Below, piece after piece: positions 7,602 to 10,167 of a DNA stretch of 64,000 nt. The position numbers were made by a program, and so were the translations under genes. The DNA comes from Escherichia coli. Its GTDB lineage: Bacteria > Pseudomonadota > Gammaproteobacteria > Enterobacterales > Enterobacteriaceae. The stretch lies in the NCBI RefSeq assembly GCF_013122565.1, contig NZ_CP053258.1, one strand, 5' to 3'. How positions within the stretch are numbered: position 1 is the stretch's first letter; each line of letters starts with the position of its first letter. The notes below the pieces were generated by a model that worked only from the letters and a program-made list of their open reading frames with translations, made no database searches and was not told where the DNA came from.

Positions 7602-8426
7602 ATGGTCGCACCCATTCCCGCGAAACGCGGCAGAAAACCCGCCGTTGCCACCGCACCAGCGACTGGACAGGTTCAGTCTTTAACGCGTGGCCTGAAATTA
7701 CTGGAGTGGATTGCCGAATCCAATGGCAGTGTGGCACTCACGGAACTGGCGCAACAAGCCGGGTTACCCAATTCCACGACCCACCGCCTGCTAACCACGA
7801 TGCAACAGCAGGGTTTCGTGCGTCAGGTCGGCGAACTGGGACATTGGGCAATCGGCGCACATGCCTTTATGGTCGGCAGCAGCTTTCTCCAGAGCCGTAA
7901 TTTGTTAGCAATTGTTCACCCTATCCTGCGCAATTTAATGGAAGAGTCTGGCGAAACGGTCAATATGGCGGTGCTTGATCAAAGCGATCACGAAGCGATT
8001 ATTATCGACCAGGTACAGTGTACGCATCTGATGCGAATGTCCGCGCCTATCGGCGGTAAATTGCCGATGCACGCTTCCGGTGCGGGTAAAGCCTTTTTAG
8101 CCCAACTGAGCGAAGAACAGGTGACGAAGCTGCTGCACCGCAAAGGGTTACATGCCTATACCCACGCAACGCTGGTGTCTCCTGTGCATTTAAAAGAAGA
8201 TCTCGCCCAAACGCGCAAACGGGGTTATTCATTTGACGATGAGGAACATGCGCTGGGGCTACGTTGCCTTGCAGCGTGTATTTTCGATGAGCACCGTGAA
8301 CCGTTTGCCGCAATTTCTATTTCCGGACCGATTTCACGTATTACCGATGACCGCGTGACCGAGTTTGGCGCGATGGTGATTAAAGCGGCGAAGGAAGTGA
8401 CGCTGGCCTATGGCGGGATGCGGTGA
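7602..8426 (+). CDS. iclR: Glyoxylate-shunt transcriptional repressor IclR
   Basis: ORF 7563-8426; internal start MVAPIPAKRGRKPAVATAPATGQVQSLTRGLKLLEW matches IclR; 274 aa. Confidence 0.95.
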   Translation: MVAPIPAKRGRKPAVATAPATGQVQSLTRGLKLLEWIAESNGSVALTELAQQAGLPNSTTHRLLTTMQQQGFVRQVGELGHWAIGAHAFMVGSSFLQSRNLLAIVHPILRNLMEESGETVNMAVLDQSDHEAIIIDQVQCTHLMRMSAPIGGKLPMHASGAGKAFLAQLSEEQVTKLLHRKGLHAYTHATLVSPVHLKEDLAQTRKRGYSFDDEEHALGLRCLAACIFDEHREPFAAISISGPISRITDDRVTEFGAMVIKAAKEVTLAYGGMR

Positions 8427-8442
8427 CATTTTCGCTTCTGAT

Positions 8443-10167
8443 TTATACAAACCGCACGCTAAACCTCTGCCTACGCCGATAGGCATAAACATCTTCCACA
8501 TGCCCGCCACGGATACGGTTTTGTAGCGCGCGCCAGTAATCGGCGCGGAACAGGTCGGCGTGCATCTCTTCAAACAGTGGCCCAATACGCGGGTCGGCGC
8601 ATAGCCAGTGACGGAACTCTTCCGGGAAAACATCGCCCGGCGAGACGCTGTACCACGGTTCGCTGGCAAGTTCGTCTTCCGGGTAGCGCGGCGGTGGGAT
8701 GTCGCGGAAATTCACTTCCGTCATGTAGCAAATTTCATCGTAATCATAAAACACCACGCGCCCGTGGCGGGTGACACCGAAGTTTTTAAACAGCATGTCG
8801 CCAGGGAAGATATTGGCGGCAGCAAGCTGGCGAATAGCGTTACCGTATTCTTCAATGGCGTCGCGCAGCTGCTGACCTTCCACTTGTTCCAGCCAGATAT
8901 TGAGCGGCACCATCCGCCGCTCAATATAGAGATGGCGAATTACAATCTGCTCACCAAGATCGGTGATTTTTTCCGCTGCTTCCTGGAGCAGTAATTCCAT
9001 TAATGCCGGGGAAATATGCCGCTTCTCCAGCACAAAGTTTTCAAACTCCTGGGTGTCCGCCATTCGGCCCACGCGATCGTGCTCTTTCACCAGTTGGTAG
9101 CAGGCACGAACGTGAGCGGCAGACATCTCTTTCTGCGGCGCGAACTTGTCTTTGATCACTTTGAATACCCGGTCGAAGCCAGGCAGCGTGAACACCAGCA
9201 TCACCATTCCACGAATGCCCGGCGCTTCAATAAACTGCTCATTACAGTCTTGCAAATACACAAGATATTCGCGGTAGCTTTCGGTTTTAGCGTGCTTCTG
9301 GCAGCCGATAGCCATATACAATTCAGCGGTGGTTTTACCCGGCAGAATTTCCCGTAACCACTCGACCAACGCTGCGGGCAGCGGCGCGTAAACCATAAAA
9401 TAAGAACGCGCGAAGCCAAAGACGATGCTCGCTTCGGCGGTGGTCGTCAGGCAGGTATCAATAAATAACTCGCCATCGTCCGTCTGGTGGATCGGCAGCA
9501 AAAAGGGCAATGTGCCGGAAGACGTGATCAGTTTGCCCACCAGCCAGGCGGCTTTATTGCGATAAAACAGTTCGTTCGCCACCTGTAAATGACTTTCCGC
9601 GAGGTTGCCTGTCCCCAGCGTTTCCGTCAGATGGCGAATGATGTAATGAATGTCACGGCTTTTATTCTGCCAACGCAGACGCAGCGGCAGGTCGCTGATA
9701 ACGCGCATTAGCAGCGCTTCCCAGCCGTGCTCGGGGTAGAAGTCTTTCGCCAGCGGGCGCGGAATGGTACGAAAACGGCGCTCAGGCTGGGAGGTAAAGA
9801 TAAAAAGCCGCTCGGGAGTAAGCGAGCGGTGGTCAAATAACCGACAGTACACGGAGTTAAAAAAGCTCTCCGCAATCTCGAAGCGCGGGTAATCCGGCAA
9901 CAGCCGGGTGTATTGCTCTTTAACGCGCAGTAAAAATGCCGCGTCCGTGCTTTGACCGTTAGTAATGCAGCGCAGTTGCTCCACGACCAGACCCACGTGA
10001 TGATCGTAAAGATGGATACGGCTTTTCATCGCCTGCTGGACGGCGTGCCAGTCGGCTTGTTCGAAACGCTGCTGCGCCCCGGAAGTCACTTCGAGGAATC
10101 GACCATACTGAGCGTCGAAACCTTGCAAAATGGTTTGTGCAATCAGTAATTCCAGGCCACGCGGCAT
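8443..10167 (-). CDS. aceK: Isocitrate dehydrogenase kinase/phosphatase
   Basis: 574-aa ORF beginning [24 protein letters not shown]; C-terminus ends ..RFSVRFV, differing from the K-12 ending I recall (..RFSVRYGEMLF). Confidence 0.95.

Follow-up and report, generated by a model that had tools for sequence, protein, structure and literature searches.

Results

The iclR–aceK junction

In the window, a 64-kb stretch of Escherichia coli DNA, the repressor gene iclR (7602–8426, plus strand) and the aceK gene of the aceBAK operon (8443–10167, minus strand) converge, and direct reading places 16 bp (8427–8442) between their stop codons. iclR, whose mechanical open reading frame begins upstream at 7563, encodes 274 amino acids with the HTH_IclR and IclR_C domains of Pfam, ends with a TGA at 8424–8426 and is 99.5% identical in nucleotide sequence to its K-12 and O157 counterparts as far as position 8405. 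The aceK stop appears as TTA at 8443–8445 as written on the plus strand, and the 574-residue product ends in ...RFSVRFV. Both reading frames are intact in translation, and the distance between the stops and the AceK ending given in the first-pass annotation of this DNA were the same when coordinates and translation were read again. The absence of arpA claimed there agrees with the 16-bp spacer and with searches across the whole window: tblastn with K-12 ArpA as the query found no homologue in the 64 kb (best E = 0.098), blastn with the whole K-12 arpA insert gave no nucleotide match and no remnants elsewhere in the window, and homology search with K-12 ArpA found no protein with Toxin_15 (the ShET2 N-terminal region) and ankyrin repeats encoded in it.

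A consensus scan of 8400–8480 detected no terminator-like site, and the folds of 8395–8480 were no better than those of shuffled sequences on either strand (z = 0.0 and −0.77). Transcription of aceBAK and of iclR presumably continues from each unit into the other, as in every Escherichia without arpA; nothing in the regulation of the spacer is peculiar to the window, and none of this points to altered regulation of the glyoxylate shunt. As a separate observation, the 64-kb window is free of IS elements, which speaks weakly against Shigella.

Comparison with the K-12 arrangement

In K-12 MG1655 aceK is followed by arpA, which lies on the opposite strand to aceK, and then by iclR, the order given in the first-pass annotation. 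There arpA encodes 728 amino acids and overlaps the 3' end of aceK by 32 bp, AceK has 578 residues ending in ...RFSVRYGEMLF, and the stops of aceK and iclR are 2,471 bp apart, so that K-12 does not share the 16-bp spacer, a possibility that had been raised with the same claim. The order metH, iclR, aceK, aceA, aceB, metA, yjaB is common to the window and to the K-12/O157 arpA (espL4) locus; the latter differs in carrying a 2.48-kb low-GC insert with the 728-residue ShET2/EspL2-family ankyrin protein, and in an AceK of 578 rather than 574 residues that is overlapped by arpA over those 32 bp.

Homology with K-12 and BLR(DE3), as judged by blastn and boundary sequences, ends on the iclR side at 8433, which is the iclR stop plus 7 bases, and restarts on the aceK side at 8448–8451, at AceK codons 573–574; the junction had been placed within the final aceK codons, and the alignment puts it precisely there. 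Between the blastn breakpoints (8433/8448 with BLR) lie 14 bases without K-12 counterpart (8434–8447, GCTTCTGATTTATA), a segment peculiar to arpA-less genomes. In its place K-12 and BLR carry ~2.48 kb made up of arpA and a 316-bp AT-rich upstream region, with a GC content of 37.6% for the segment/arpA and 32% for the upstream 316 bp, against 53–54% in the aceK and iclR flanks. K-12 ArpA matches Toxin_15 (ShET2 N-terminal region, E = 1.3e-96) and the ankyrin repeats Ank_2 in Pfam, and RefSeq names it EspL4 or ShET2/EspL2-family type III effector. No repeats that could be mobile-element signatures were seen at the ends of the K-12 insert on inspection by eye only. The arpA-less spacer loosely resembles the right-hand end of the K-12 insert (GC.TCT...ATAC..CG), but over too short a stretch to have meaning, and the resemblance was dropped.

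The Clermont arpA marker

That arpA is a marker used in phylotyping, as the first-pass annotation had said, is confirmed by published primers and profiles (PMC4322292; PMC9854720), and the reverse primer spans the breakpoint itself. The 'arpA' primers of the 2013 Clermont quadruplex are AceK.f and ArpA1.r (PMC4322292 Table 1; PMC9854720 Table 7). AceK.f, with its sequence taken from PMC4322292, matches the window exactly at 8822–8841 on the minus strand, and the cognate site of ArpA1.r lies at 8442–8461 on the plus strand with mismatches at 6 of its 20 bases; together they bound exactly 400 bp (8442–8841), the size of the published product. Of the 20 bases of ArpA1.r, the first 7 fall within the K-12 insert and the remaining 13 in common aceK sequence, and thus the 'arpA' PCR assays exactly the breakpoint. 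As the primer depends on those 7 insert bases, the window types as arpA-negative in the Clermont scheme, and in-silico PCR with the pair gave no 400-bp product from it. yjaA is also absent from the window, and the quadruplex profiles compatible with the resulting arpA−/yjaA− genotype are F (− + − −) and B2/G (− + − +) (PMC9854720 Table 8). The chuA and TspE4.C2 loci lie outside the window, which leaves F, B2/G or an unassignable profile. Our literature search for the first account of arpA absence in B2/F yielded only secondary sources. The same was true of the 476-bp band of the cryptic clades.

The AceK C-terminus

The AceK of the window covers essentially the whole of the Pfam profiles AceK_regulatory (PF20423, residues 10–307) and AceK_kinase (PF06315, residues 310–564), and its residues 1–573 align without gaps to solved AceK (3LC6/3EPS); another solved construct, 4P69, ends at the residue aligned to residue 571 of the window protein. 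Relative to K-12 AceK there are 15 internal differences, followed by F573, V574 and a stop in place of Y573-G-E-M-L-F578. Among the loci listed in the family-wide scan described below, the tail after ..VR[F/Y] differs in nearly every genus, with lengths of +1 to ~+25 amino acids, and several tails resemble read-through into REP-like repeats (PDKA.APPSG...), which suggests that the extreme C-terminus of AceK is unconstrained. As the changed residues follow the end of the Pfam kinase domain at 564, are absent in 4P69 and are hypervariable among genera, the tail change most likely leaves function unaffected, and the idea that it alters AceK activity finds no support in these comparisons.

Distribution of the arpA-less junction

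A scan with one genome per species covered at least 80 Enterobacteriaceae aceK loci (E. coli, E. fergusonii, E. marmotae and E. ruysiae are not among the matches listed). iclR is the convergent downstream neighbour of aceK in 78 of the 80 listed loci, the sequence ending before iclR in the remaining two, and the gaps between the genes are mostly from −47 to ~100 bp; an ArpA homologue at the aceK–iclR site was found in none of these 80 species loci (E ≤ 1e-5). The three non-coli Escherichia among the matches listed, E. albertii, E. whittamii and Escherichia sp. MOD1-EC7003, have the same 15–16-bp spacer and RFSVRFV tail as the window, whose junction, including 8434–8447, is colinear with theirs. 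They differ from it in being only 90–94% identical outside a short patch over the junction, where E. coli is 96–99% identical. E. ruysiae has been found arpA-negative by ClermonTyping (PMC11997573), and the ancestral state within the genus is drawn from this statement together with the three species above. Tails that start with ..VRYG, as in K-12, are seen in many other genera among the loci listed; for this reason Y573/G574 could be old and RFV a genus-level novelty, which leaves some doubt about how the last two or three aceK codons came about.

Within E. coli, a contiguous iclR–aceK junction was found in 1,316, 1,308 or 1,305 of 5,426 complete genomes, depending on the query used, and the arpA-less complete genomes are annotated alike, with iclR, a 16-bp gap and a 1,725-nt aceK. 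The arpA-negative strains of B2/F (DA33135, FDAARGOS_497, IAI39, ST648) resemble the window in the 16-bp spacer, the 574-residue AceK ending in RFSVRFV, the absence of arpA and an ArpA1.r site left unmatched. They differ at ~10 of the 73 bases of the junction (86.3% identity), the window aceK is only ~95% identical to theirs, and the flanks of the window are more A/E-like. An independent public Logan contig, SRR11451224, is 100% identical to the window over iclR, spacer and aceK, and is the one Logan contig on which the exact window AceK was found.

Lineage affinity and mosaic structure

Over 35 kb of non-rRNA sequence the window is 98.7% identical to O157:H7, 98.4% to K-12, 98.2% to an arpA−/yjaA− (F-type) strain and 97.8% to a B2 strain, and by this divergence it is E. 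coli sensu stricto. Across 18–25 kb of it, identity to complete E. coli genomes nowhere exceeds 98.0–98.6%, and its aceK allele is only 93–96% identical to any E. coli aceK compared. The thi operon is 98–99.5% identical to K-12/O157 versus 95.5–97% to the F and B2 references, and yjaZ, missing in those references, is present and encodes a protein 100% identical to that of K-12; iclR, the thi operon and yjaZ all look A/E-like more than B2/F-like.

Over the 73-bp junction the 1,305 complete E. coli genomes without arpA are all at or below 92.6% identity to the window, and the common arpA-less haplotype (F-type IAI39, ST648 and others) is the one that reaches 86.3%; junction and neighbouring core genes do not cluster with B2/F/G. 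The site table and run analysis delimit a 45-bp patch over the junction (8408–8452) in which 9 consecutive informative sites agree with MOD1-EC7003 and not with FDAARGOS_497, and 8408–8454 of the window is identical in MOD1-EC7003. Six of the nine sites (8408–8428) are unlike all six E. coli references compared. Upstream of the patch, 51 of 54 informative sites (7400–8400) are E. coli-type; downstream, 8466–8545 is F-type, and the strain nearest to the aceK 3' end (8466–8581) is the F-type FDAARGOS_497. Inside aceK no sharp recombination breakpoint was found, the sliding-window identities being mosaic against every reference, and only 8408–8452 is sharp. No complete E. coli genome without arpA had the MOD1-EC7003-type junction haplotype. 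The five closest junctions include those of 2018-05-2CC, SC418 and MFDS1022581, and their iclR genes are only 92–95.6% identical to typical E. coli.

Discussion

From the anatomy of the locus, its breakpoints, their distribution and the mosaic pattern, all of them observed directly, we infer the polarity of the events and the recombination history. We consider it very likely that the window holds a glyoxylate-shunt locus of the ancestral, arpA-less type, that the K-12 arrangement is derived from that type by insertion, and that the junction of the window lies within a recombination mosaic. In the ancestral type the aceBAK operon and iclR would converge 16 bp apart, with AceK stopping at residue 574 (..VRFV). 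In the derived K-12 type, a ~2.48-kb low-GC segment with arpA, a member of the ShET2/EspL2 effector family with ankyrin repeats, would have been inserted and would have replaced ~14 bp of the spacer and the last two aceK codons; with these codons replaced, the AceK of arpA-positive strains would read six new codons (..VRYGEMLF) from the inserted DNA. The window would thus carry no deletion scar. Along the window the mosaic would run from an A/E/F-type iclR through a 45–69-bp MOD1-EC7003-like (cryptic-lineage) patch and an F-like aceK 3' end to a deep-branching aceK allele, and the arpA state of this lineage would have been set by homologous recombination and not by deletion. In one version the lineage kept an old arpA-less junction and the flanks around it were overwritten; in the other, a segment lacking arpA took the place of arpA. 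We rate the two as about equal in likelihood and slightly prefer the second.

One challenge to this account is that arpA collapsed out of the window during assembly. An exact match over the junction in the independent contig SRR11451224 and ~1,300 complete E. coli genomes of the same architecture exclude a misassembly, which had been named beforehand as a way in which the absence of arpA might be refuted; both reading frames are, moreover, intact, and we give an artefact practically no chance. A real loss is scarcely more credible. The first-pass annotation had read the locus as a deletion or rearrangement point, and a de novo deletion of arpA in the window lineage, from a K-12-like ancestor, would explain that arpA is missing and is consistent with indel boundaries equal to those in K-12. 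Yet 8434–8447 and the ancestral stop, which have no K-12 counterpart, match other Escherichia base for base, and a deletion could not regenerate 14 lost bases. We therefore regard the deletion reading as effectively refuted and its probability as very small. Since 8434–8447 is colinear in three Escherichia, none of the 80 listed loci has ArpA and the K-12 segment is low in GC, the evidence argues instead for an insertion in arpA-positive E. coli, and the 'deletion or rearrangement' wording is not supported. Since no deletion could bring back those 14 bases together with the old stop codon, the ancestral type is probably the one without arpA, and arpA would be a horizontally acquired islet of other E. 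coli; absence of arpA would then probably be the original condition and not a loss.

A stronger competitor places the genome of the window in phylogroup B2, F or G, with the arpA-less state acquired simply by descent, as the Clermont scheme assumes. The arpA−/yjaA− genotype fits F (− + − −) or B2/G (− + − +) (PMC9854720 Table 8), and the aceK 3' end (8466–8581) is closest to the F-type FDAARGOS_497. Set against this are a junction with 86.3% identity to the common arpA-less haplotype and no more than 92.6% to that of any arpA-less complete genome, a thi operon nearer to K-12/O157 (98–99.5%) than to the F and B2 references (95.5–97%), a yjaZ that those references lack and whose product equals that of K-12, and the absence of any complete E. 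coli nearer than 98.0–98.6% across 18–25 kb. On balance descent within B2, F or G appears rather unlikely. The annotation had called the arpA-less state a lineage signature: it is indeed a Clermont marker, but as a signature of lineage the claim does not hold in full, since the junction haplotype is not that of B2/F (86%), the flanks are A/E-like and the marker can be moved by recombination. A possibility, somewhat less likely than not, is that the window represents an E. coli lineage outside B2/F/G of which few members have been sampled, and whose arpA-negative state was set by homologous recombination with a MOD1-EC7003-like cryptic Escherichia; on this view a junction haplotype that none of the 5,426 complete E. 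coli genomes has would lie within DNA that is otherwise A/E-like.

The arpA-less junction is in itself an ordinary typing marker, already known and described, and has little importance outside typing, where the 'arpA' PCR interrogates 7 bases at the insertion boundary, in the last aceK codons. That arpA is a troublesome marker, subject to horizontal transfer, has already been reported with ClermonTyping and EzClermont (PMC6113867, PMC7656184), in agreement with the way in which its state at this locus evidently follows recombination tracts. Our comparisons show that the arpA-negative state can ride on haplotypes other than those of B2/F, which calls for caution in in-silico phylogrouping; if the window does belong to a lineage outside B2/F/G, arpA-based Clermont typing would consistently put such lineages in the wrong group. 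Along with 2018-05-2CC, SC418 and MFDS1022581, the window would in that case mark iclR–aceK as a recurrent site of introgression between Escherichia species. The arpA-less state is also found in a few complete E. coli genomes with foreign-looking iclR/aceK alleles, from which it follows that the marker can move by recombination; the iclR of 2018-05-2CC is 96.3% identical to that of E. whittamii.

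Results and Discussion

Three complete genomes labelled 'E. coli', 2018-05-2CC, SC418 and MFDS1022581, also have iclR-aceK junctions without arpA, and their iclR is 92-95.6% identical to that of typical E. coli; between Escherichia whittamii and 2018-05-2CC, iclR is 96.3% identical. These divergent alleles suggest that iclR-aceK has been introgressed between species repeatedly. Among the loci listed from other Enterobacteriaceae (comparison loci L006-L082), AceK sequences part ways right after ..VR[F/Y], and in Citrobacter, Salmonella, Klebsiella and Kluyvera some of the AceK ends listed are peptides of the PDKA.APPSG..RRA type, which is typical for translated REP elements. 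The stop region of aceK is, in all probability, one where insertions recur across genera. A query that included the aceA-aceK intergenic spacer (10168-10251) found about 34 matches per E. coli genome, and the spacer therefore carries a dispersed repeat of the REP/BIME type; positions 10203-10245 are missing from the B2 references, from the cryptic Escherichia sp. MOD1-EC7003 and from E. whittamii.

The part of the Clermont quadruplex that can be read from the window is arpA-negative and yjaA-negative. YjaA was not found in the window by tblastn, and both yjaA primers are without a match there. After yjaB (14542-14985), a gap of just 124 bp (14986-15109) leads to the 5S rRNA gene, which starts at about 15110; in K-12 the corresponding gap includes yjaA and measures 520 bp. 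The YjaA of K-12 is 100% identical at the protein level to that of E. whittamii (positions 145-525 of comparison locus L004), with adjoining genes at about 92% identity in DNA, and YjaA homologues adjoin the same locus in several further genera among the loci listed. Given the E. whittamii copy and these homologues, yjaA looks ancestral and repeatedly lost, a polarity opposite to that of arpA.

Farther along, yjaZ (htrC; 38067-38603, minus strand), located between thiH and rpoC, encodes a protein 100% identical to that of K-12; the gene is present in the window and in K-12, but missing from the F-type reference FDAARGOS_497 and the B2 reference DA33135. This pattern is among the signs of A/E-like flanks. 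In the 1-kb tile covering the 5' end of zraS and the zraS-zraP region (25700-26699), identity to K-12 drops to 82% and the two differ in length by roughly 28 bp, but identity to the references for O157, F-type and B2 is 98-99%; K-12 appears to be the outlier at this place.

Among 5,426 complete E. coli genomes, the nearest reach just 98.0-98.6% identity to the window over 18-25 kb, and for the aceK allele (8443-10167) the best identity is about 95-96%. An identical AceK protein was found in one public contig only (Logan SRR11451224), and about 20 sites are unique to the window when compared with all nine Escherichia references. The source lineage is sparsely sampled, or filed under a name other than E. 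coli.

Within aceK, six substitutions fall in 15 bp (9248-9262), where the window is unlike eight or all nine references; E. albertii has the window's base at 9255, and one of the substitutions results in G307D in AceK. This looks like a tiny patch, either imported or derived from clustered mutation. Between metH and iclR, about 110-120 bp before iclR begins, three further clustered substitutions (7483, 7489 and 7492) occupy positions that are constant in all nine references, other species included; these window-only bases may fall within the promoter or operator region of iclR.
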